A DNA stretch of 64,000 nt from a bacterium. GTDB taxonomy: Bacteria > UBA8248. The notes beneath the pieces are model-generated. The model did no database searches, had not been told where the DNA came from, and saw nothing but the letters and a program-made list of their open reading frames with translations. The position numbers were made by a program, and so were the translations under genes. Shown here one piece after another: positions 1 to 12,722 of this stretch. The stretch covers positions 384,001 to 448,000 of the forward strand of contig OZ241326.1 of assembly GCA_965199855.1 (NCBI GenBank), read 5' to 3'. Numbering within the stretch: position 1 is the stretch's first letter; each line of letters opens with the position of its first letter.

Positions 1-65
1 TGACGGCCGTCCTGCACGGCTGGAACGGGAGCAGCCGCTCCGTCTCCCGCGCCTTCGGGGCCTGA
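1..65 (+). CDS. 3' end of a further paralog of the uncharacterised ~340-aa 'WSDGLPVV' family (partial, runs off window)
   Basis: Frame from base 3 reads TAVLHGWNGSSRSVSRAFGA* (TGA 63-65), matching the C-termini of the next genes (SAVCHGWSGGSRAVHGTYEV; TAVMPGWVDGSEAVSVSYRP). Confidence 0.8.
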   Translation, partial: TAVLHGWNGSSRSVSRAFGA

Positions 66-97: not shown

Positions 98-1126
98 TTG
101 AGCGATTCGCCGGATGAATTCGAATTCTTTCTGGAAAAGCCCTGGTCGGACGGTCTGCCCGTCGTCACGCCCTCGGAGGAGCGCGTCGAGCGGATGCTCT
201 CGGGCGCGCGAAGAGGCCCGGAGGAGGCGATAGGCCCCGTCCCCCCCGCCATGGGCGAGGCCACCGTCCGCAGCGTGGCGGTTCACGCGGTCATGGCGGG
301 CTGCAAGCCGGCGTATCTGCCCGTCGTCCTGGGCGCCGTCTCCCTCATGCTGCGGGAGGAGTTCAACGTGAACGGCGTGCAGGGGACGATGCACGGCGTG
401 GCGCCCCTGATGATCGTGAACGGCCCCTACGCGGAGGAGATCGGCGTTCACGGGGGCAACGGCTGCTTCGGCCCCGGCTTTCGCGCCAACGCGACCATCG
501 GCCGCGCCATTCGCCTGATTCTGATGAACCTGGGCGGCGGCATCCCGGGCGTCTCCTCGATGACGATTTTCGGCACGCCGCTACGCTACACCGCGTGCGT
601 CGCGGAAAACGCGGAGTTTCACCCCTGGGCGCCGCTCGCCTGCTCCAGGGGATACGGGGCGGAGGAGAACGTGATCACGATGGCGATGGTGGAAAGCCCG
701 CGCCTCACCTTCGACGACGTGAGCGAGGAGCCGGGGCGCCTGCTGCGGGGAATCGCGGACGCCATGACGGGCCTGGGCTCCTGGAACATGCACGCGCCCA
801 GAACCGACATGGTGGTCGCCCTGAACCCCCAGCACGCGAAAATCTGCGCGGACGGCGGCCTCGGACGCGAGGAGGTTCACCGGCGGCTTTGCGCGCTGGC
901 CGGCCGCCGGGTGAAGGAGCTCAGGCGCGGCGGCAACTGGCGGCGCGAGCGCGCCCTGGCCATGCCGATCGACGTCGATCCCGACGATGGGGAGTTCTTC
1001 GTTCCCGTCATCAAGGATCCGCGCGACCTGCACCTCATCGTCGCGGGCGGCTGGGGTTCGGGAAGCGCCGTCTGCCACGGGTGGAGCGGCGGAAGCCGCG
1101 CCGTTCACGGGACGTATGAGGTTTGA
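98..1126 (+). CDS. Uncharacterised protein, UGSC-associated 'WSDGLPVV' family, first complete copy
   Basis: 342 aa, TTG start after AGGAG. Motifs KPWSDGLPVV, AVHAVMAGC, IVNGP, GPGFRANATIGRA, NLGGG, CVAEN. Confidence 0.85.
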   Translation: MSDSPDEFEFFLEKPWSDGLPVVTPSEERVERMLSGARRGPEEAIGPVPPAMGEATVRSVAVHAVMAGCKPAYLPVVLGAVSLMLREEFNVNGVQGTMHGVAPLMIVNGPYAEEIGVHGGNGCFGPGFRANATIGRAIRLILMNLGGGIPGVSSMTIFGTPLRYTACVAENAEFHPWAPLACSRGYGAEENVITMAMVESPRLTFDDVSEEPGRLLRGIADAMTGLGSWNMHAPRTDMVVALNPQHAKICADGGLGREEVHRRLCALAGRRVKELRRGGNWRRERALAMPIDVDPDDGEFFVPVIKDPRDLHLIVAGGWGSGSAVCHGWSGGSRAVHGTYEV

Positions 1127-3260: not shown

Positions 3261-4208
3261 CTAATATCCCCCTGAAGGCTTCGCCTTGTTTGCGCTGAAG
3301 TCGAGCAGATAGGTCTCATCGTCTATCTTGAAGAACGTCACATCCGTTCTTCCATGCTTCTCCAGATGCTCTTTTGTTACATACTCTCCCGAGGGCACTC
3401 CCAGCCGCTTTCGGAGATACGCGCCAAGCAGGCTGTTGTCTCTGGTGGTATGAAGTCCTTTTCCGCTGTCCTGCGCCCGAACGAAAATAAAAGCCTCGCC
3501 GTCGTCCGTATGGACGGTAAAAGGCGCATGGCGTTCGGGGAAGAAATCGCCGTCTCCTATCCTGACGGGAATGTTGATGTAAGCCTGGTTTTTGTTTCGT
3601 CCCCGGCGCTGTCCCCAGTTGACGCCTGATCTCTTGGGCGTCTCTTTGGTCTTGCTGTCGAGCAAGGACAGCGTGACTTCCTCAAGGCCCCTCGCTTCTT
3701 TCTGGGCGATGCTTTGGGATATGAGCATCCGTCTGCGTATGCTGGATTCCCTGCAGTCCGTAGTGTGCTTGAGCGCGCGCTCATAAAACTGATTCGCCCC
3801 AGCCGGATCGGAAGAAGCCATCCCCTCGATCTGATTTCCCCCGAACCCCGCCATGGTGTAGTTCGCCGAGCCGCAGAAGGCGCTCTCGGGCTCGCCTTTG
3901 TCATTCAGCCATACATACGATTTGACGTGGACGGGATTTCCCCGCGTCACGTATCGGCACTGAAATTCGATCCCGCCCTGGGGGGCGTCAGCCAGTTTGC
4001 GAAACGCGGAATGCTGCGCCTCCTGCATTCCATACGCGACGGTCATTCCCACGATAAGATCGATGGAAACCTCAAGATTTTCTTTGCGCAGATGCTCCAT
4101 GTGGCTATCCGCCATTCCCGCGGTGGCGAATCCGCTGACAATGCGCAATTTGCGAAACTTGCGGGCCGGCTCCAGCAGAACGCGCTGAAGCAGGCTGTTG
4201 CTGATCAC
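3261..4208 (-). CDS. PLD-domain restriction endonuclease (NgoFVII/CglI R-subunit-like)
   Basis: HVK...GSANYT PLD-nuclease motif, C-terminal region resembling a B3-type DNA-binding domain. Start overlaps the MTase stop by 4 nt. Visibly lower GC. Confidence 0.8.
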   Translation of the reverse strand: MISNSLLQRVLLEPARKFRKLRIVSGFATAGMADSHMEHLRKENLEVSIDLIVGMTVAYGMQEAQHSAFRKLADAPQGGIEFQCRYVTRGNPVHVKSYVWLNDKGEPESAFCGSANYTMAGFGGNQIEGMASSDPAGANQFYERALKHTTDCRESSIRRRMLISQSIAQKEARGLEEVTLSLLDSKTKETPKRSGVNWGQRRGRNKNQAYINIPVRIGDGDFFPERHAPFTVHTDDGEAFIFVRAQDSGKGLHTTRDNSLLGAYLRKRLGVPSGEYVTKEHLEKHGRTDVTFFKIDDETYLLDFSANKAKPSGGY

Positions 4209-5215
4209 AGGGAACGCCTGGAGACGTGATGCCTGACGAGCGCGTCAAGAACGCCCCGGAAAATAACTTCCGCGCCCCTTGGAGGAACGGCCATTCCGAT
4301 TTGTCTGCGGACGGATTCCTTGCCGCCCCGGAAAACGAAGTCGTCGGGAAAAGTCTGGAGGCGGGCGCGCTCCCTGTTCGTCAATGCGCGGTTCTCTTTC
4401 CAGTGGTAGATGTGGGTTCCGCCGCCGCCCGAGCCCGTCACGGTGTAGCTTGGCGCGTCGGGCTTCAGCCGCTTGTATATCTGGCTTATTTTTGCGCCTT
4501 TGACGCGCAACTTCAGATGCTCCGGCAATTCGGCGGTAAAGGCGTTTTCTCCCGGGCGGATGTATCTCAGCCGCTCGACCACGTTCTTCGATTGTCTGGT
4601 CAGCTCGTTGTTGGGAGCGGTCGCGGGAATTTTCGAGAGCGCGCGTTCAGCCGCCACGGGCTTTTTCTTGTGGGTTGGAGCGGGATGCCTGAAATGCCGG
4701 ATATCCAGATCCTTGCGAAAGCCGACGATGATAATCCTGTGGCGGGTTTGCGGGACGCCGTATTCCTCAAAGCGGTACGTGTGGGGAAACAGGCGGTATC
4801 CCGCTTTTTCCAGCGACTCGAGGATGGTGTTGAAATCTCGCTTCCCTCCGCTTGACTTGATGCCGTTCACGTTCTCCGCAACAAAGAAGGAGGGCTGTTT
4901 GATCTCGAGCGCCTTCACCCCCCAGGCGTAAAGCCCCCCGTATCGCCCGGATATGCCCTGCCGCTCTCCCACCACGCTGAAGTCGTTGCACGGGAAGCCG
5001 AACACCAGTCCATCGATGTCGGGCATCTTCTCCAAATCGATCTCGGCGACATCCCCGCATATCACCGATGGTATGGGGACGTTTCCTCTGAGCGTCCGGC
5101 AGGCGTCCTCGTCGTTGTCGTTCGCCCAGACGCAGGAAAATCCCGCCCTGTGCGCTCCGAGCGCCATGCCGCCTGCGCCGGAGAACAATTCAGCTATTCT
5201 ATAGGGCCTGTTCAT
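4205..5215 (-). CDS. dcm: DNA (cytosine-5)-methyltransferase
   Basis: Motif I ELFSGAGG, catalytic FPC, ENV, QTRHR, RERARLQTFPD, QIGMAVPP. Confidence 0.95.
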   Translation of the reverse strand: MNRPYRIAELFSGAGGMALGAHRAGFSCVWANDNDEDACRTLRGNVPIPSVICGDVAEIDLEKMPDIDGLVFGFPCNDFSVVGERQGISGRYGGLYAWGVKALEIKQPSFFVAENVNGIKSSGGKRDFNTILESLEKAGYRLFPHTYRFEEYGVPQTRHRIIIVGFRKDLDIRHFRHPAPTHKKKPVAAERALSKIPATAPNNELTRQSKNVVERLRYIRPGENAFTAELPEHLKLRVKGAKISQIYKRLKPDAPSYTVTGSGGGGTHIYHWKENRALTNRERARLQTFPDDFVFRGGKESVRRQIGMAVPPRGAEVIFRGVLDALVRHHVSRRSL

Positions 5216-5654
5216 TTTTTCGTCTTGAATCGCCGGGCGCCCACTCCTCGGATTCTCTGATTTTTCTCGCGAGTTTCGTGATCTTCCGGGGCTCCGCTTC
5301 GCACTCCCATAGGACGAAAACCCTCCATCCCATCTTCTTCAGGATAACACGGACTTTCTGGAAGCGATCGATGTTTCTCTTCAGTTTGGGGCGCCAATAG
5401 TCCTGGTTCGATTTTGGCATTGCGGCCCTCTTGCAGCCCTTGTGCTGATGCCAGAAGCATCCGTGAATGAATACGATCGCCCGATGCTTCTTCAAGACAA
5501 TGTCGGGGCTGCCGGGAATATCCTTTTGGTGCAGACGAAATCGAAGCCCCCGTCGATGGAGTCCCGAGCGAACGGAAATCTCGGGCTTCGTATTCTTTGA
5601 GCGAATCCTGGACATAATCCGGCTTCGCTCTTCCTTGGTGAATGCGTCGGCCAC
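5199..5654 (-). CDS. vsr: Very short patch repair endonuclease
   Basis: GTG start at 5654. RSRIMSRIRSKNTKPE, PGSPDIV, FIHGCFWHQH, GWRVFVLWEC. Confidence 0.93.
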   Translation of the reverse strand: MADAFTKEERSRIMSRIRSKNTKPEISVRSGLHRRGLRFRLHQKDIPGSPDIVLKKHRAIVFIHGCFWHQHKGCKRAAMPKSNQDYWRPKLKRNIDRFQKVRVILKKMGWRVFVLWECEAEPRKITKLARKIRESEEWAPGDSRRKNEQAL

Positions 5655-5719
5655 GGAAATCTTCGCCTCCAGGGGCCCGCGCGTTCTTGAATGCCCCGCC
5701 CCCTCCGATCCACGCCGGG

Positions 5720-7969
5720 CTACCCGCCCCTTTTCTCCCTCATCGCCCGGCAGACGCGCTCGGGGGTGATGGGCAGGTCGCGGACCTCCGCGCCGATGGC
5801 GTCGTTGATCGCAAGCGCCACGGCGGCGGGGGCGTTGTTGCAGGGGGGCTCGCCCACGCCGCGCGCCCCGTAGGGCCCCGCCCCCTCGCCGCATTCGAGG
5901 ACGACGGATTCAACCTCGCCGATGTCGGACGACGTGGGGATGAGATACTCGTGGAAGCTCTGGGAGCGGCAGTCTCCCTCGACCATGGTGATTTCCTCGT
6001 GCAGCGCGTAGCCGATGCCCATTACCGCCCCGCCCTCGAACTGCCCCTCCACGCTCACGGGGTTGAGGGCGCGCCCCACGTCGTGGGCGGCCACGTGCTT
6101 CAGGAGGTTCACCTCGCCGGTCTCCGCGTCCACCTCCACCTCGCTGGCGTGGACGCCGAAGGTGTAGTCCGACCAGCCGCCCATGCCGTTCAGGTAGCGC
6201 CCGGGGTTCTCGTAGTCGTGTCCCGGCATGTTGTAGCCGTGCGTGCAGTGGAGCGATTCGCCCATCCTCTTCGCCTCGCCGGCCGCGGCGCCTATCCCGA
6301 TTCTCCGCTCGGGCGCGGAGGCCACCCACGCCTCGCCGCCGCCCATGCGCACGTCCTCCTCCGCCGCCTCCAGCAGGGAGGCCGCGCCCCTCGTCGCCGC
6401 CTTGCGGACCTCCTCGGCCGCCAGCCGGACGGCCTGCCCCGCCATGAGGGTCTGGCGCGAGCCGGCGGTGATGCCCGAGAGCGGCGTGGTGGCGGAATCG
6501 GAGAGGCGGGTGGAGACCTGATCGAGCCTGAGCCCCAGCGCCTCGGCGGTGATGCTCTGGAGCGTGGCGCCCTGGCCCGCGCCGATGTCCGGCGCGCTCA
6601 CGCGGACGACGGCGCTTCCGTCGGGCTCGAGGTGAACCGCCGCGTTCGCGTCGTCGTGCGGCCTTCCGTAGCCGGTGATGTTCGCCGCCGCCGCCCGGCC
6701 GACCCGCTTGCCCGGGCGCGGCTTCGAGGGTTCGCCCAGGGCGCGGAAGGCGCCCTCCAGGCACCCCTCCAGGTTCGGCTCGTAGGGGATCTTCTGGCCG
6801 GTGGGCAGCGCCTGCCCCTTCTGGATGAAGTTCTTCCGCCGCAGCTCGTATTTGTCCATGCCGAGGGCGTCGGCGACCAGGTTCATCTGGTTCTCGTAGG
6901 CGAAGCAGACCTGGTTCGAGCCGACGCCGCGCATGGCGTTGGTGATGGGGTTGTTGGTGAGGTAGCCGTGGGCGCGAATCGCCGCGTTGGGCACGTCGTA
7001 GGGCCCCGCGGCGATGCACATGGCGCCCAGGAGGAACAGGTTGGACTTGTAGGGGTAGGCGCCCGCGTCGCCCACGATGTCCGCCTGCACGGCCAGGATT
7101 TTCCCGTCTTTCGCCGCCGCCGTCCTGTAGTTCATGTAGAAGGGGTGCTTCTTCGAGGTGTTGCGGATGCCCTCCTCCCGGCCGAGAACCATCACGGCGG
7201 GCCGCCGCGTCAGCCAGGTGAGCAGCGCCAGATAGGGCTCGACGGTCAGCATCCCCTTGGCGCCGAAGCCGCCGCCGACGTAGGTTCCGAGGTGGCGGAC
7301 GCGGCTGTGGGGAATCCCCAGAATCGCCGCGACGGCGCGGTAGTATTCGATGAGCTGCGTGCCTACGCGGATGGTGAGGACGCCGTCCTCCTCCATCCAG
7401 GAGGTGCCGGAGGCGGGCTCCAGAAAGGCGTGCTCGGCGAGCTGGGTGGTGTAGGTCTTCTCGACCACCGCGTCGGCTTCGGCGAACGCGGCCTCCGGGT
7501 CGCCGCGGCGCACCTCGAAGTCGCAGGCCTGGCGCTTCTCCGCGCTCGCCTCGTCGTGGCGCGTCGTCCACACCCCCTCCTGCGCGTCTATCTCCACCTC
7601 GATGGCCGCGATGGCGGCGTCGAGCGCCTCCCTCGTTTCCGCGCCCACGACGGCGAGGGCGTCTCCCGTGAATTCGATCCTGTCCTCCACCAGCACCGGC
7701 TGATGCGGCAGGCCCGGCGAGCCGGAGCCGAACCGCGCGTTCTGGCCGGGGATGTCCTTCGCGGTCAGGACGGCGGCGACGCCGGGAATTTTCTCGGCCG
7801 CCGAGGCGTCGAGCCTCCTCAGGCGGCCCACGGGGACGGGCGTGAACAGGACGCCGCACTGAAGGGCGTTCGCGGGCGCCGCGTCCTCGCCGTAGGGCAT
7901 GGAGCCGTCCGCCTTCGGGATGGAGTCGTACCGGACGTTCGGCTTGCCGATGATGTCGTAGTCAGCCAT
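5720..7969 (-). CDS. Xanthine dehydrogenase/aldehyde oxidase family molybdopterin-binding subunit
   Basis: ATG 7969 with AAGGAG RBS. EHAFLEP, VGGGFGAKG, AMRGVG, DIGAGQG, AGSR, GQFEGG, GARGVGEPP. Confidence 0.93.
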   Translation of the reverse strand: MADYDIIGKPNVRYDSIPKADGSMPYGEDAAPANALQCGVLFTPVPVGRLRRLDASAAEKIPGVAAVLTAKDIPGQNARFGSGSPGLPHQPVLVEDRIEFTGDALAVVGAETREALDAAIAAIEVEIDAQEGVWTTRHDEASAEKRQACDFEVRRGDPEAAFAEADAVVEKTYTTQLAEHAFLEPASGTSWMEEDGVLTIRVGTQLIEYYRAVAAILGIPHSRVRHLGTYVGGGFGAKGMLTVEPYLALLTWLTRRPAVMVLGREEGIRNTSKKHPFYMNYRTAAAKDGKILAVQADIVGDAGAYPYKSNLFLLGAMCIAAGPYDVPNAAIRAHGYLTNNPITNAMRGVGSNQVCFAYENQMNLVADALGMDKYELRRKNFIQKGQALPTGQKIPYEPNLEGCLEGAFRALGEPSKPRPGKRVGRAAAANITGYGRPHDDANAAVHLEPDGSAVVRVSAPDIGAGQGATLQSITAEALGLRLDQVSTRLSDSATTPLSGITAGSRQTLMAGQAVRLAAEEVRKAATRGAASLLEAAEEDVRMGGGEAWVASAPERRIGIGAAAGEAKRMGESLHCTHGYNMPGHDYENPGRYLNGMGGWSDYTFGVHASEVEVDAETGEVNLLKHVAAHDVGRALNPVSVEGQFEGGAVMGIGYALHEEITMVEGDCRSQSFHEYLIPTSSDIGEVESVVLECGEGAGPYGARGVGEPPCNNAPAAVALAINDAIGAEVRDLPITPERVCRAMREKRGG

Positions 7970-8099
7970 CTGCTCGCTCCTTGAAGATGAAGAGGGCATT
8001 CGCGGGATCGGGCCTGATCTTGCCAGAATTCGGCGAGGGCGGGAAGCGGGGCGGCTTCGTCCGCGCCTCGCGCGGGCGCGGTTCCGCCTTCGGGCGGCG

Positions 8100-8129
8100 T
8101 GGACAAGGGCGCGGTTCGCGGGCTATGAT
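8100..8129 (+). promoter_or_regulatory. Putative sigma70 promoter of the UGSC operon
   Basis: TGGACA-N18-TATGAT about 40 nt upstream of ATG 8171. Confidence 0.45.
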
Positions 8130-8170
8130 TCGCGGGCCTTTTGAGTTCACCCATTCTATTGGAGAGCGCC

Positions 8171-8701
8171 ATGGCGAACGATATGGGATTCATCGACCCC
8201 ACGGCGGGCGGCTCGGCCGCGAAGGTCGAACCCGCGCCCCGCCCCGCCGACCTTTCCGGCAAGGTGGTGGGGCTCCTCGACAACACGAAGGAGCAGGCGG
8301 ACATCATCCTGGACGCCCTGGGGGGCGCGCTTCGCGAGCGATACGACGTGGCGAAAGTCGTCTCGATGCGCAAGGAGCACTACTCGAAGCCCGCCACGGA
8401 CGAGATGATCGAGGAAATGTCCCGGGAGGTGGACGTGGCGATAGCCGCGCTCGGGGGCTGAGGCTCCTGCACGTTGTGCAGTGTGCACGACACGGTGGAA
8501 TTCGAGAAGCGGGGCGTTCCTTCGACCACCATCATCACCGAGGCGTTCAGGAACGCGGCGGACTTCCAGTTCCGGGGCAAGGGCATGGAGGGACACCCCT
8601 ACGTTCAGCTGCCCCACCCGGTCAGCAATCTCCGGCCCGACGAGATGCGCGAGACGACGCTGAGGTTCGTCGAGGAAGTCGCGAGCCATCTGAAGGGCTG
8701 A
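8171..8701 (+). CDS. UGSC-family selenoprotein (176 aa, Sec at codon 97, TGA 8459-8461)
   Basis: ORFs 8141..8461 and 8474..8701 are in the same frame. Read-through gives AIAALGG-U-GSCTLCSVHDTVEFEKRGVP. GGAGAG RBS before ATG 8171. Hairpin follows the TGA. Confidence 0.9.
8470..8497 (+). promoter_or_regulatory. Candidate bacterial SECIS element
   Basis: gttgtgca (8473-8480) pairs with tgcacgac (8484-8491), one G-U pair. Apical loop GTG starts 20 nt after the UGA. Confidence 0.65.
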
Positions 8702-8744
8702 GGCGAGGCGGGGGGCGGGAAGGCGTTTTCCGGGAGGGGCGCGC

Positions 8745-9527
8745 GTGCGCGGGTTCGAGACGATAGGCTATGAGGAGAAAGACGGGCTGGCGGTCGTCAG
8801 GCTCGACCGCCCGGAGAGCCTGAACGCGATCAGCTCGAAGATGGCCGAGGAGTTCGTGGAGCTGGCGGAAGCGCTGGCCGGGGCGCGGCGGACGCGCGTG
8901 GTCGTTCTCACCGGAGCGGGGCGCGCCTTCAGCACGGGTCGGGACCTGAAGGAGAGCGCGACCCACTCGAAGGAGACGGCCGACCGCTACCAGCGCGACG
9001 TGATGGCGACGACGACGCTTTGGGAGCGCCTGCCCATGCCCACCATCGCCGCCGTCAACGGCCATGCGTTCGGCTGGGGGGTGGAGATCACCCTGGCCTG
9101 CGACATCCGGCTCGCCGCGGAGGAGGCGACCCTGTGCCTGCCGGAGTGCAGCCTGGGCATCTTTCCCGGAGCGGGCGGCGTGGTGAGGCTTCAGCGCATC
9201 ATGCCGGCCGGCCAGGCGAAGGAGCTGGTCTTCACGAGCAGGCGCGTCGACGGAAAGGAGGCCGAGCGCATCGGTCTGGCGAACAGGGCGCATCCGCTCG
9301 CCGACCTCATGGCCGAGGCCATGGCGACGGCGGAGAAGATAAGGGACAACGGCCCCCTGGGGGTTCGCGGCGCGAAGAAGGTGATCGACCAGACGCTCGA
9401 CATGCCGCTCGCCCAGGCCGTCGAGTTCTCCAACGCCCTGCGGCTGCCGCTCAACCAAACCAGGGATTTCGCCGAGGCGCTGGCGGCCTTCAGGGAGAAG
9501 AGAAAGCCCGTTTTCACGGGGGAGTAG
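8745..9527 (+). CDS. Enoyl-CoA hydratase/isomerase (crotonase) family protein
   Basis: LDRPESLNA, AFSTGRDL, IAAVNGHAFGWGVE, LPECSLGIFPGAGG, FREKRKPVFTG. Confidence 0.93.
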   Translation: MRGFETIGYEEKDGLAVVRLDRPESLNAISSKMAEEFVELAEALAGARRTRVVVLTGAGRAFSTGRDLKESATHSKETADRYQRDVMATTTLWERLPMPTIAAVNGHAFGWGVEITLACDIRLAAEEATLCLPECSLGIFPGAGGVVRLQRIMPAGQAKELVFTSRRVDGKEAERIGLANRAHPLADLMAEAMATAEKIRDNGPLGVRGAKKVIDQTLDMPLAQAVEFSNALRLPLNQTRDFAEALAAFREKRKPVFTGE

Positions 9528-9603
9528 AAGTGCCGGCCGCCTCGCCCGGAACGGCCGGGGCCCCTCCTCCCGGCGCGCGGGCTTTTTCCGGGGGCGGCGC
9601 GGC

Positions 9604-10305
9604 ATGAGCGGGGGTATCCTCGTCACGCGGGTGGAATCGGGCGTCGCGCGCCTCACCCTCCATCGGCCCGAGGCGCGAAATGCGTTCAACACGCCGCTCA
9701 TGGAGGCCATGCGCGCGGCGATGGCCGAGGTCGGGCGCAGGCGCGGCGTCAGGGCTCTCGTCGTCACGGGCGCGGGCGAGGCCTTCTCCGCGGGGCGCGA
9801 CCTCAAGGAGAGCGCGCGTCACACGCCGGAGCAGGCGGCGCGGTTCATGGCGCTGGGCGAGAGGTGGAGCGCGGCGCTTCGGGAGTTTCCCGTTCCCACG
9901 ATCGCGGCGGTGAACGGGCCCGCCTTCGGGTGGGGGATGGTCCTGATGCTCTCCTGCGACCTTCGCCTCGCGGCGGAGGGCGCCGTCCTGGGGTATCCCG
10001 AAGCCGCGCTGGGGGTGTTTCCGGGCGGGGACGCGACCGTTCGCCTGACGCGGCAGATCTCCGTTCCCGCCGCGAAGGAGCTGACGCTCACCGGGAGAAG
10101 GTTTGACGCGCGGGAGGGATATCGCCTGGGACTGGTGAATCGCGTCGCGCCCGGAGAGAGCCTGCTGGTGGAGGCCCGCGCCCTGGGCGAGGCGATCGCG
10201 CGGCGCTCGCCCGAAGAACTGAGGGCGATGAAGGCGGAGTTTCTGAAAGTCGAGGCGATGCCGCGCTTCGGGCTTCTGTCGGCGGCGGAGAGAATCGGGC
10301 GGTGA
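9604..10305 (+). CDS. Crotonase family protein, paralog of the upstream gene
   Basis: AFSAGRDLKESA, IAAVNGPAFGWGMV (first catalytic Glu position is Val), YPEAALGVFPG. C-terminus shorter. Confidence 0.9.
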   Translation: MSGGILVTRVESGVARLTLHRPEARNAFNTPLMEAMRAAMAEVGRRRGVRALVVTGAGEAFSAGRDLKESARHTPEQAARFMALGERWSAALREFPVPTIAAVNGPAFGWGMVLMLSCDLRLAAEGAVLGYPEAALGVFPGGDATVRLTRQISVPAAKELTLTGRRFDAREGYRLGLVNRVAPGESLLVEARALGEAIARRSPEELRAMKAEFLKVEAMPRFGLLSAAERIGR

Positions 10306-10324
10306 GGGCGCGGGAGGGGGTTCG

Positions 10325-11521
10325 ATGGAATTCACGCTGAGCGAAGAGCAGACCAGAATCCGGCAGATCGCCAGAAAATTCTCCTACGAGGAGCTGGCGC
10401 CGGTCGCTCCCGAGCGGGACAGGATTCAGGACTGGGAGGAGCGGATGCCGTGGGATCTCACGGAGAAGGCGAGCGCCCTGGGCCTCCGGCAGCTGCCCTA
10501 CCCCAGGGAATACGGCGGCATGGGCGCGGACGTGCTTTCGTGCTGTCTGGCGGGGGAGGAGCTCGCCGTGGGCGATCTGGGCTTCGCGGTGAACCTGGAT
10601 CAGACCTGGAAGCTCTCCCACATCTTGGAGAAGGTGGACCCCGGGATACGCGACCCCTGGATGAAGCGCCTGTGCGAGGAGCCGAGGTTCCTGGTGGCGA
10701 TCTCCATGACGGAAGAGGGAGCGGGAACCGACCATCAGGGATATTACGACGATCCCTCCATCGCCCTTTACGCGCGCGCGGAGAAGAAGGGCGGCAAGTG
10801 GATCGTCAACGGGAAGAAGCGCTACATCAGCAACGGCCCCGTGGCCTCGCTGTACGTTCTGGCGGCGCGAACCGACCTCGCCAAAAGCCTGCGCGAGAGC
10901 CTCACAGGCTTCCTCGTTCCCCGGGACGCCCCCGGCGTCTCGATCGGCCGCGTGCACGAGAAAATCGGCCAGCGCCTCTCCATGAACTCGGAGATATTCT
11001 ACGAGAACGTCGAGGTTCCGGAGAGCCACGTGATCCTGGGCGAGGGGAACATGTTCGAGATCAGGGGCAACCTCCTGGCGATGGGAAAGCCCGAAGCCGC
11101 CGCCACGGCCCTGGGCGTCGGACGCGCCGCCTTCGAGAAGGCGCTCGCCTACGGCCGCGAGCGCGTCCAGGGCGGCAGGCCCATCGCGCGGCATCAGGCG
11201 ATAGAGACCATGCTCGCCGACATGGCGATGAGCCTGGACGTCGCGCGCACCTACATCTGGCGCACCGCCTGGGCGGTGGATCACCAGAAGCCCTACGACT
11301 TCACCCAGGGGTGGAAGTGCAAGGTTTTCGCCTCGGAGGCCGCCTTCGAGTGCGCGCGTCTGGGGATGGAGATATTCGGCGGGGCGGGCGTCATGCGGGA
11401 CGCGCCCATGGAGAAATACCTCCGCGACGCCAGCACCTTCCTGCATTCGGACGGCACGAACCAGATATTGAGGCTGAGGACGGCGCAGGCGTACGTGAAC
11501 GGGGCGGCGACGGCGTTCTAG
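10325..11521 (+). CDS. Acyl-CoA dehydrogenase family flavoprotein
   Basis: PREYGGMG, SMTEEGAGTD, NGKKRYISNG, ERVQGGRPI, EIFGGAG, EKYLRDA, HSDGTNQI. Confidence 0.93.
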   Translation: MEFTLSEEQTRIRQIARKFSYEELAPVAPERDRIQDWEERMPWDLTEKASALGLRQLPYPREYGGMGADVLSCCLAGEELAVGDLGFAVNLDQTWKLSHILEKVDPGIRDPWMKRLCEEPRFLVAISMTEEGAGTDHQGYYDDPSIALYARAEKKGGKWIVNGKKRYISNGPVASLYVLAARTDLAKSLRESLTGFLVPRDAPGVSIGRVHEKIGQRLSMNSEIFYENVEVPESHVILGEGNMFEIRGNLLAMGKPEAAATALGVGRAAFEKALAYGRERVQGGRPIARHQAIETMLADMAMSLDVARTYIWRTAWAVDHQKPYDFTQGWKCKVFASEAAFECARLGMEIFGGAGVMRDAPMEKYLRDASTFLHSDGTNQILRLRTAQAYVNGAATAF

Positions 11522-11546
11522 CGGAACGACGGGGAGGCCGGGCGGA

Positions 11547-12101
11547 ATGACGCGCCGGCGGGACGCGATGCGGCAGGGCGGGCTGTTCCGGGAAGGCGGA
11601 GAGGCGCTCCGGGAGGACGCCGCGCGCTGGCTGGCGAGGGTGCGCGCGGAGTTTCGCGTTTTCGTCTCGGAGGCGGGCGTCTCGGAAATCAGGATGCTGA
11701 ACGGCGTGGAGAAGCCCCGGGCGGCGCCGCGCGCGCGGGGAGAATCGTCGCCGCTCATCCGCCGGGCCGTCAGGCAGATAGAAGAATACCTGGAGGGGGC
11801 GCGGACGCGCTTCGACCTCAGGACGGACCTCTCCTCCCTCACGCCGTTCACGGCGAGGGTTTTGCGGGAGACGGAGAAGATTCCCTACGGGCGGACGCGC
11901 TCCTACGGATGGGTGGCGAAGCGGATCGGCGCTCCCAGGGCCGCGCGCGCCGTCGGTCAGGCGCTGCATGGAAATCCCGCGCCGCTCGTCATACCCTGAC
12001 ACCGCGTCATCGCGGGCTCGGGCGAGCTCGGCGGCTTCGCCAGCGGCCTCTCGCTGAAGGCGGCGCTCCTCGCCCACGAGAGGCGCCGCCGGGCCCGATG
12101 A
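11547..12101 (+). CDS. ogt: Methylated-DNA--protein-cysteine methyltransferase, selenocysteine form (TGA 11997-11999)
   Basis: IPYGRTRSY, AARAVGQA, NPAPLVIP-TGA-HRVI...LGGFASG...KAALLAHE. The TGA replaces the Cys of PCHRV and the frame continues to TGA 12099-12101. Confidence 0.88.
12002..12034 (+). promoter_or_regulatory. Candidate bacterial SECIS element
   Basis: cgggctc (12013-12019) pairs with gagctcg (12024-12030) around loop GGGC starting 21 nt after the UGA. Lower stem ccgc/gcgg. Confidence 0.65.
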
Positions 12102-12140
12102 CGCGCGCCCGCGCTTAGCGAACGCGCAGGAGGAGGGAGC

Positions 12141-12722
12141 ATGTCCGAACGCATGAGCGAGTTTATCGGCCAGGTGCGCGAGATCGCGCGCGCGGGAGGC
12201 TCCGAGGGGGAAATCACCGCCCGGGTGGCGGCGCGCCTCGAGCCGATTCTCGAGGAGCCGCGCCTGCTGAGCGAGGAGCAGCTGCTGGTGAAGAGCCGCG
12301 GCTTCACGCTCAACCGGATTCACGTCGAGCCGGACGAGAGCTTCTCCGTCGGCGCAGGGATATGGGACGTGGGTCAGACCACCCCGATTCACGATCACGG
12401 CACCTGGGGGGTGATAGGCATCTACCGCGGGGTGGAGAGCGAGGAGAGCTTCCTGCGCGAGGGCGCGCGCGAGAGCGGCGCCCGCGTCCGACTCACCCCG
12501 AAGGGGAGGCGCCTGGCCGGGCCCGGCGAGGTGTTCGTCTGCTGCTCGCGGGATGAGGACGCGCACCGCGTCAGCTGCGCCTCGGCGGAGCCCGTGGTGG
12601 GAATCCACGTCTATGGCGGGAATCTCGCCAACATCCCGCGCTTCAGGTATGACGAGGAGACCGGCGAGGCGCGGCCGTTTCAGACCGGCTGGGACTACGC
12701 GAGGACTTCGGCCGACTCGTAA
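12141..12722 (+). CDS. Cysteine/3-mercaptopropionate dioxygenase-like cupin
   Basis: WDVGQTTPIHDHGTWG, DAHRV, GIHVYGGN: 3-His cupin pattern of thiol dioxygenases. Confidence 0.8.
   Translation: MSERMSEFIGQVREIARAGGSEGEITARVAARLEPILEEPRLLSEEQLLVKSRGFTLNRIHVEPDESFSVGAGIWDVGQTTPIHDHGTWGVIGIYRGVESEESFLREGARESGARVRLTPKGRRLAGPGEVFVCCSRDEDAHRVSCASAEPVVGIHVYGGNLANIPRFRYDEETGEARPFQTGWDYARTSADS

Follow-up and report, generated by a model that had tools for sequence, protein, structure and literature searches.

What do the selenoproteins of the UGSC family do, and with which other proteins do they act? The question is raised by a gene in a stretch of 64,000 nucleotides, hereafter the window, from a bacterium of the GTDB lineage UBA8248 (GCA_965199855.1, contig OZ241326.1, positions 384,001-448,000, forward strand), which standard open reading frame (ORF) calling cuts in two. 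[quoted passage not shown] The family being known already, the window gene itself brings nothing new in kind. Its genome shows the context of UGSC clearly, with four Sec paralogues, nine copies of a partner gene and downstream acyl-coenzyme A (CoA) enzymes, and fusions are seen in other lineages. The best explanation of the whole, and in our judgement a probable one on the gene and protein comparisons set out below, is that UGSC is the selenium-bearing part of a two-part enzyme, the other part being a protein of the family called 'Unknown_1'. The context of UGSC thereby turns 'function unknown' into a testable two-protein hypothesis.

One gene with a selenocysteine codon for residue 97

Translated with TGA as Sec, a single frame that opens with ATG 8171 runs on to the stop at 8699-8701, with one internal TGA only. 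The read-through product of 176 residues has ALGG-U-GSCTLCSVHD around residue 97, and GG-U-GSC at residues 95-100 aligns with paralogues and orthologues at the conserved site of the family. Calling with translation table 11 yields two ORFs, 8141..8461 and 8474..8701, and the proposal of a sequence-only reading of this DNA, that they are one UGSC-type selenoprotein cut in two at TGA 8459-8461, is borne out. The read-through protein exceeds the cut-offs of both the Pfam model PF24696 (UGSC; 177.2 bits, cut-off 25, residues 8-175 on profile positions 3-171 of 172) and the NCBIfam equivalog NF041046, 'UGSC family (seleno)protein' (147 bits, cut-off 125). Both 'halves' are covered by one family model and are therefore one gene, a full-length, ordinary member of the UGSC family.

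A scan with one genome per species gave 581 relatives; the orthologue figures given here refer to the best 79 loci (61-92% identity), which are labelled Nitrospinota, Tectomicrobia, Chloroflexota, Burkholderiales/Betaproteobacteria and Alphaproteobacteria, among others. The Sec site is TGA in 79/79 of these loci, and in 80/80 if a second copy in L066 is counted; a TGC in L064 came from an unrelated motif match. Terminal stops vary (TGA 52, TAG 11, TAA 15 of 78, while 2 run off the locus). The terminal codon of the window gene is also a TGA, and is a real stop because orthologues have TAG or TAA there in 26/78 cases. UGSC family members occur in 43 of the 51 genomes of the window's phylum, at 2-9 copies each; 150 of these matches were listed, besides 89 more, and exactly one TGA is found in 150/150 of the matches listed, as in each of the four paralogues of the window's own genome.

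The genome encodes a tRNA-SeC(tca) at C1:744698-744793 (ARAGORN) together with SelB (371.9 bits), SelA (548.3 bits) and SelD (344 bits), all above their cut-offs. Neither of the two outcomes that the sequence-only reading had held to be fatal to its proposal was thus encountered, namely homologues split into separate genes with TAA or TAG stops and a genome devoid of tRNA-Sec or SelB. Comparative evidence of this kind shows UGA 8459-8461 to be read as Sec by SelB and tRNA-Sec. The SelD gene (L010, G000:C1:2985603-2986568, minus strand) has an in-frame TGA of its own, one in number, and therefore encodes a Sec-containing selenophosphate synthetase.

The selenocysteine insertion sequence

A bacterial selenocysteine insertion sequence (SECIS) element is a stem-loop that follows the UGA closely and has G(U) in its apical loop. 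An 8-bp stem with a GUG loop 20 nt downstream of the TGA had been noted earlier and is confirmed, the stem starting 11 nt and the loop 19 nt after the TGA. The fold energy of the single sequence is no better than chance (z -0.18 for 72 nt, z -0.33 for 48 nt), so that the reality of the hairpin rests on comparison. In an alignment of 87 sequences, 73 of them distinct, 98.3% of the cells for the eight stem pairs are paired, and three of the eight change on both sides; 0/500 shuffles were as good as the real alignment, and slid controls were far lower. The hairpin codons +4 to +10 (ACG TTG TGC AGT GTG CAC GAC) vary little at synonymous sites over 81 distinct orthologue rows (entropy 0-0.23 bits), as against 0.61-1.93 bits in the neighbouring codons between -10 and +20.

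The individual changes are compensatory. Pair G18-C30 becomes A-U in two orthologues, with TTG changing to TTA together with CAC to CAT, and pair C21-G27 becomes G-C in paralogue D and in the L109 fusion, by way of Cys to Trp and of Val to Ile or to another Val codon. A hairpin with a GU-bearing loop stands at a similar distance in 7/7 divergent genes of the family; one of the seven, a further fusion in L085, has a stem of wholly different sequence and an unchanged GUG loop. Because of the frozen synonymous sites and the compensatory changes, the hairpin at 8473-8491 is, on comparative grounds, a SECIS. Rfam gave no family in the whole window at gathering thresholds nor in 8300-8700 at E <= 10, a null result that does not count against this assignment.

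A conserved neighbour and probable partner of UGSC

Upstream of the UGSC gene lie four tandem genes, P0-P3 (C1:383049-387261, i.e. window -951 to 3261), that carry the motif A-V-N/H-A-V-M-A-G-C-x-P-E-Y-x-P. A UGSC/Unknown_1 fusion is printed in Fig. S1A of PMC2398784 (Zhang and Gladyshev 2008), and the alignment in that figure shows AVNGVMAGCRPEYMP, which is the most conserved motif of the partner. By this motif the partner family is the 'Unknown_1' of Zhang and Gladyshev (PMC2398784). It was missed by the sequence-only reading and is the main clue to the function of UGSC.

The link between the two families is seen in gene order, in fusions and in distribution. A partner gene lies within 300 bp of UGSC in 52/79 loci, in the flank beyond a molybdenum (Mo)-hydroxylase gene in 17/79, all in the window's clade, and further off in 2/79 (at 881 bp, and at 1302 bp with an IS110 transposase in between). 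No partner was found in the flank of 8/79 loci, five of which have short flanks; the other three (L033, L046 and L063) have full 6-kb flanks. UGSC and partner are joined in one ORF in L085 (229-1827, plus strand) and on the minus strand of L109, and PF24696 is carried by 9/34 partner homologues of at least 600 residues. One partner homologue is fused to a flavin adenine dinucleotide-dependent oxidoreductase. P0147 was considered as a thioredoxin fusion and rejected: its N-terminal extension has CPTC, but no Pfam thioredoxin domain at E <= 0.01. Within the window's phylum, the 43 genomes out of 51 in which a search with P1 finds the partner are those that have UGSC; the two tallies agree for every family and every genus, and the 8 genomes that lack the partner are 93-100% complete. 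Taken together, fusion, adjacency and co-occurrence argue strongly, at the level of genes and genomes, that UGSC works with the partner. The consulted part of PMC2398784 contains no report of the near-universal adjacency and co-occurrence.

Nine partner genes stand against four UGSC genes in the window's genome, and in most of its relatives within the genus 10-15 partner matches go with 6-9 UGSC matches. This ratio of about 2:1 suggests either a heteromeric partner or several partners that share one UGSC. Three of the four UGSC paralogues in the genome directly adjoin the gene of a partner-family protein of about 360 residues, the three neighbours being 39-43% identical to one another. Within the window's array, P1 is closest to the partners that lie beside UGSC in Burkholderiales/Betaproteobacteria loci (64-77% identity, versus 43-57% for P2 and P3), with the exception of the partners in L087 and L095, which are closer to P3 than to P1.

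The partner family is large, with 6,572 clusters at E <= 0.001 among 8,000 scored, and nameless in Pfam and NCBIfam: at E <= 1, Pfam and NCBIfam gave no family and one chance-level match to DsbG (E 0.091), no Pfam domain appears among the 120 clusters listed and the sole name given there is 'hypothetical protein'. The nearest Pfam-bearing Atlas cluster, of 417 residues, has PF24696 on 16% of its members (score 0.88), which is a lead only. The AlphaFold model of the partner (pLDDT 87.8, pTM 0.88) had nothing at E <= 0.001 in a Foldseek search of the PDB and, against 48,161 chains, a best VIA-align Z of 3.9 with none at 5 or above; phmmer against the PDB gave E >= 0.54 only. The best Foldseek rows, class-I fumarate hydratase and the Toblerone-fold cyclic amide hydrolases, have TM < 0.3 and were rejected. 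The lack of a PDB match does not prove a new fold. Cys69 of the partner is nearly invariant.

Predicted fold and the selenocysteine motif

The AlphaFold model of UGSC, built from a 26-row alignment (pLDDT 91.6, pTM 0.85), predicts the element order b-a-b-a-b-a-b-a-b in five parallel beta-alpha units: b1 (32-37), a1, b2 (62-67), a2, b3 (89-95), a3 (98-113), b4 (118-123), a4, b5 (145-147) and two helices. Foldseek against the PDB placed flavodoxin-like domains first (E from 8e-5, TM 0.4-0.5), and in a VIA-align comparison with the same 48,161 chains the highest Z was 11.3; Rossmann, flavodoxin, TIR and CheY-like chains fill the top rows (Z 9-11.3), with many of the Rossmann, TIR and CheY-like type between 9 and 10. 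Neither the 50 VIA-align rows shown nor the listed Foldseek rows for the predicted model contain a thioredoxin-fold chain. By sequence, the single protein had no match in the PDB and the 26-row profile had chance-level matches only (E >= 0.44). UGSC is therefore predicted, from the model, to be a small flavodoxin/Rossmann-like alpha/beta domain, and the label 'thioredoxin-like', which the sequence-only reading took over from the literature, finds no support in the predicted model, which is all-parallel beta-alpha.

In the model, Sec97 sits between b3 and a3, at the end of strand 3 and the N-terminus of helix 3, with Cys100 predicted to follow after one helical turn and Cys103 after two. So placed, the motif does resemble redox motifs in general. 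The Sec is invariant across the aligned sequences of the family, and the Cys at +3 is present in at least 90% of the 26 aligned sequences; it is Ser in the L085 fusion (UGTS) and in a variant from L086 (1089-1670, plus strand; UGSS). The third Cys of UxxCxxC, to which the sequence-only reading had drawn attention, is invariant in the window's orthologue group only; the position is Trp in paralogue D, L109 and L086 and Ile in L085, so that this Cys marks the subfamily and not the family as a whole. A Cys form, C-G-L-C, occurs in five long fusion proteins of one type, one of which is labelled Alistipes. His106 and Asp107, beside the motif, are nearly invariant.

Proposed function and alternative explanations

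We propose that UGSC and the Unknown_1 protein of about 340 residues form one enzyme, for which P0-P3 would supply the partner here. The partner would bind a small carboxylate-type substrate, and the selenolate of Sec97 would attack or reduce it. A Se-S bond would then form with Cys100, where this residue is present, and would be re-reduced by a thiol or flavoprotein reductase; in variants without Cys100, Cys69 of the partner is a candidate counterpart. The product would pass to the downstream acyl-CoA enzymes, here the two crotonases and the acyl-CoA dehydrogenase. We infer this chemistry by analogy only, on the model of selenoprotein B of glycine and D-proline reductase, in the sense that UGSC may work like that protein, not that it is one.

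More tentatively, and with a good deal less confidence than we have in the two-part enzyme as such, UGSC and its partner may represent a widespread, undescribed two-component selenoenzyme, a counterpart among environmental bacteria of the 'protein B' of the Stickland reductases. The partner would bind a carboxylate delivered by TctC-type receptors, a reductive or group-transfer step would fall to the selenolate of UGSC, and crotonase and acyl-CoA dehydrogenase would take over the product. If this were true, the multiple partner paralogues, nine for four UGSC genes here, would adapt one selenium chemistry to different substrates.

TctC enters this proposal through a wider context scan, which covered 72 of 143 candidate ORFs from 12 loci. 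In 5/9 Burkholderiales/Betaproteobacteria loci, a gene for a carboxylate receptor of the TctC family lies directly upstream of, and in the same direction as, a partner-partner-UGSC run, and genes for flavoproteins of the size of thioredoxin reductase lie nearby in 2/9 of the loci scanned in this group.

Several points weigh against the two-part enzyme or against the details of its mechanism. In the window, the partner genes are not adjacent to UGSC but 4.9 kb upstream, past a restriction-modification island and the divergent Mo-hydroxylase gene, and 8/79 loci have no partner in the flank, including the three with full 6-kb flanks. Related genomes are not independent samples, so that the 43/43 co-occurrence goes back to few evolutionary events. 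Because the +3 Cys is Ser in L085 and L086, a redox pair of Sec and Cys100 cannot operate within UGSC in these two forms, nor can it be the mechanism of the whole UGSC family. The UGSC fold is a prediction from a model, and the function of the UGSC-partner pair is one that we infer from sequence comparison. TctC genes are very numerous in Betaproteobacteria, and for this reason the TctC adjacency may be partly due to chance and is a lead only. Towards selenoprotein B, UGSC falls below the cut-offs of TIGR01917 (16.1 vs 602.2 bits), TIGR01918 (11.3 vs 65.45) and NF040795 (14.9 vs 775), and an hhalign comparison of UGSC with three PrdB-like selenoproteins of its own genome put Sec on Sec, but with a probability of only 6% and E 0.006 over 37 columns.

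An alternative that we regard as unlikely is that UGSC acts on its own as a selenol/thiol oxidoreductase, with the general redox or antioxidant role of the thioredoxin-like protein that the literature suggests, and that its neighbours are incidental. The UxxC at a helix N-terminus, with its likeness to redox motifs, and the 3/79 loci that lack a partner gene in full flanks would fit such a protein; the all-parallel beta-alpha model with no thioredoxin-fold chain among its 50 VIA-align or listed Foldseek rows, the strong linkage to the partner by fusion, adjacency and co-occurrence, and the family members without the +3 Cys would not. Somewhat less likely again is that UxxCxxC is a metal-binding or sulfur/selenium-carrier site, serving for example the neighbouring Mo-hydroxylase, and not a redox nucleophile. 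Three chalcogen ligands with CxxCxxC spacing, the nearly invariant His106 and Asp107 next to them, and the presence, in 17/79 loci, of a lone Mo-hydroxylase large subunit gene with the partner array on one side and UGSC on the other lend themselves to this idea. However, paralogue D and the fusions have no third Cys, none of the 56 loci outside the window's clade has the Mo-hydroxylase, and no metal-binding family of Pfam or NCBIfam was matched. Finally, a true stop at the TGA, with the two ORFs as separate small genes or a pseudogene, has next to no chance of being right and is already contradicted: table-11 calling, the lack of an Rfam match and an unremarkable single-sequence hairpin energy may speak for it, but one hidden Markov model covers both halves, which are conserved at the protein level in one frame, TGA is kept in 79/79 loci while genuine stops vary, synonymous sites are frozen at the SECIS, and the Sec machinery is encoded in the genome. 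The two-part enzyme of UGSC and Unknown_1 is the explanation that we prefer.

Genomic context

The features of the locus are collected in Table 1. The promoter-like site upstream of UGSC is the sole one in 7900-12400, where 0.1 are expected. With the Shine-Dalgarno-like GGAG and a gene order that is kept in relatives, it makes the earlier suggestion that UGSC heads an operon plausible. The order of UGSC, two enoyl-CoA hydratase/isomerase genes, acyl-CoA dehydrogenase and methylated-DNA-protein-cysteine methyltransferase (MGMT) is kept in 15 close relatives (L031-L045), and an enoyl-CoA hydratase match follows UGSC in 22/79 loci. A xanthine dehydrogenase-family match is found in 23/79 loci, 17 of which have it in the stretch from the partner array to UGSC. 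A G+C-rich hairpin of 9 bp lies at 8709-8732 (plus strand), 8 nt past the terminal TGA of UGSC and before the crotonase gene, where it may serve RNA stability or attenuation.

Table 1. Features at and around the UGSC gene (positions in the window)
Feature	Position	Strand	Remarks
Partner gene P0, 3' end (starts before the window)	1..65	+	own-genome search, C1:383049-384059; ORF L027:1486-2514
Partner gene P1, 'Unknown_1' family	98..1126	+	342 residues; own-genome search; AlphaFold 2 model, pLDDT 87.8
Partner gene P2	1169..2185	+	338 residues; own-genome search
Partner gene P3	2239..3258	+	339 residues; own-genome search
NgoFVII-type restriction endonuclease	3261..4208	-	in lower-GC island
C5 cytosine methylase	4205..5215	-	in lower-GC island
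Vsr mismatch endonuclease	5199..5894	-	in lower-GC island
Mo-hydroxylase large subunit (xanthine dehydrogenase/aldehyde oxidase family)	5720..7999	-	Pfam MoCoBD_1, MoCoBD_2, Ald_Xan_dh_C; divergent from UGSC
Promoter-like site TGGACA-18 nt-TATGAT	8100..8129	+	upstream of the UGSC gene; consensus match only
Shine-Dalgarno-like GGAG	8161..8164	+	6 nt before the ATG; read from the sequence
UGSC family selenoprotein gene	8171..8701	+	ATG 8171, stop 8699-8701; 176 codons and stop, internal TGA read through
In-frame TGA, Sec codon of residue 97	8459..8461	+	aligned site is TGA in orthologues and paralogues
SECIS hairpin	8473..8491	+	8-bp stem, 8473-8480 with 8484-8491; loop GUG 8481-8483
Enoyl-CoA hydratase/isomerase	8745..9527	+	43 bp after UGSC; Pfam ECH_1, 202 bits
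Second enoyl-CoA hydratase/isomerase	9604..10305	+	Pfam ECH_1, 164 bits
Acyl-CoA dehydrogenase	10325..11521	+	Pfam Acyl-CoA_dh N, M and C domains
MGMT, selenoprotein	11547..12101	+	in-frame TGA 11997-11999; active site IP-U-HRV

MGMT, which is listed as a known selenoprotein family (PMC13188914), is a second selenoprotein gene shortened by standard ORF calling, downstream of UGSC with three genes in between. Read through, it covers PF01035 positions 1-80 of 81 with 107.8 bits, versus 62.6 for the truncated ORF. Ordinary ORF calling thus cuts the UGSC gene and shortens MGMT, and the genome needs Sec-aware annotation.

The island at 3261-5894 (minus strand) has a GC content of 0.55-0.62, compared with about 0.70. 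The same order without the island is seen in 14/15 closest relatives (L032, L034-L045, and the more distant L047 and L071), and because close relatives keep the gene order without it, this restriction-modification island was probably inserted between the partner array and the Mo-hydroxylase gene. With its lower GC and its absence at that place in close relatives, it was rejected as a part of the UGSC system. Elsewhere in the genome, paralogue A has a family-III CoA transferase and an aminotransferase as neighbours, and paralogue D two acyl-CoA dehydrogenases and a RidA-like protein.

Comparison with known systems

The window gene agrees with the published UGSC family in its U-G-S-C motif, its length of about 175 residues and the predominance of Sec over Cys. 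Its orthologue group adds the invariant third Cys (UGSCTLCSVHD), with no essential difference from the family, and the earlier guess of a thioredoxin-like fold (PMC2398784) finds no support in the model. In contrast to the UGSC/Unknown_1 fusions, the window has separate genes, with four tandem partners 4.9 kb upstream that are neither fused to UGSC nor abutting it.

UGSC is, judging by profile comparison, not a member of the selenoprotein B family: PF07355 was not reported for the UGSC protein at E <= 1 in Pfam, and the GrdB and GrdH models match residues 75-165 weakly, with E 0.004 and 0.009. A sequence search of the PDB turned up no GrdB or PrdB chain. The three PrdB-like selenoproteins of the window's own genome lie outside the window (L110:1105-1992, minus strand; L111:1408-2313, plus strand; L112:1402-2151, plus strand) and have one in-frame TGA each, in the motifs PV-U-PLC or PA-U-GLC. 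The two that were scanned reach 125 and 164 bits with TIGR04483, under its cut-off of 300, and among the surroundings looked at none of the three genes stands in a recognisable proline reductase operon.

UGSC has about 175 residues and no counterpart of the N-terminal part of GrdB. The partner of UGSC belongs to an unnamed family that, with no Pfam or NCBIfam match, appears unrelated to the GrdE/PrdA proprotein, and the host lineages named for the loci differ from the clostridia in which the GrdB/PrdB reductases were characterised. The likenesses to selenoprotein B (GrdB, GrdF, GrdH and PrdB; PF07355, TIGR01917, TIGR01918, TIGR04483) lie in the active site and in the division of labour. GrdB carries a UxxCxxC motif (PMC13188914), and in selenoprotein B as in UGSC the Sec stands in UxxC(xxC) after a beta-strand. 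Both have E-x-x-G-[IV]-P-[ST]-[TV] after the Sec motif, and both have, or in the case of UGSC would have, a second, substrate-binding protein as a co-worker.

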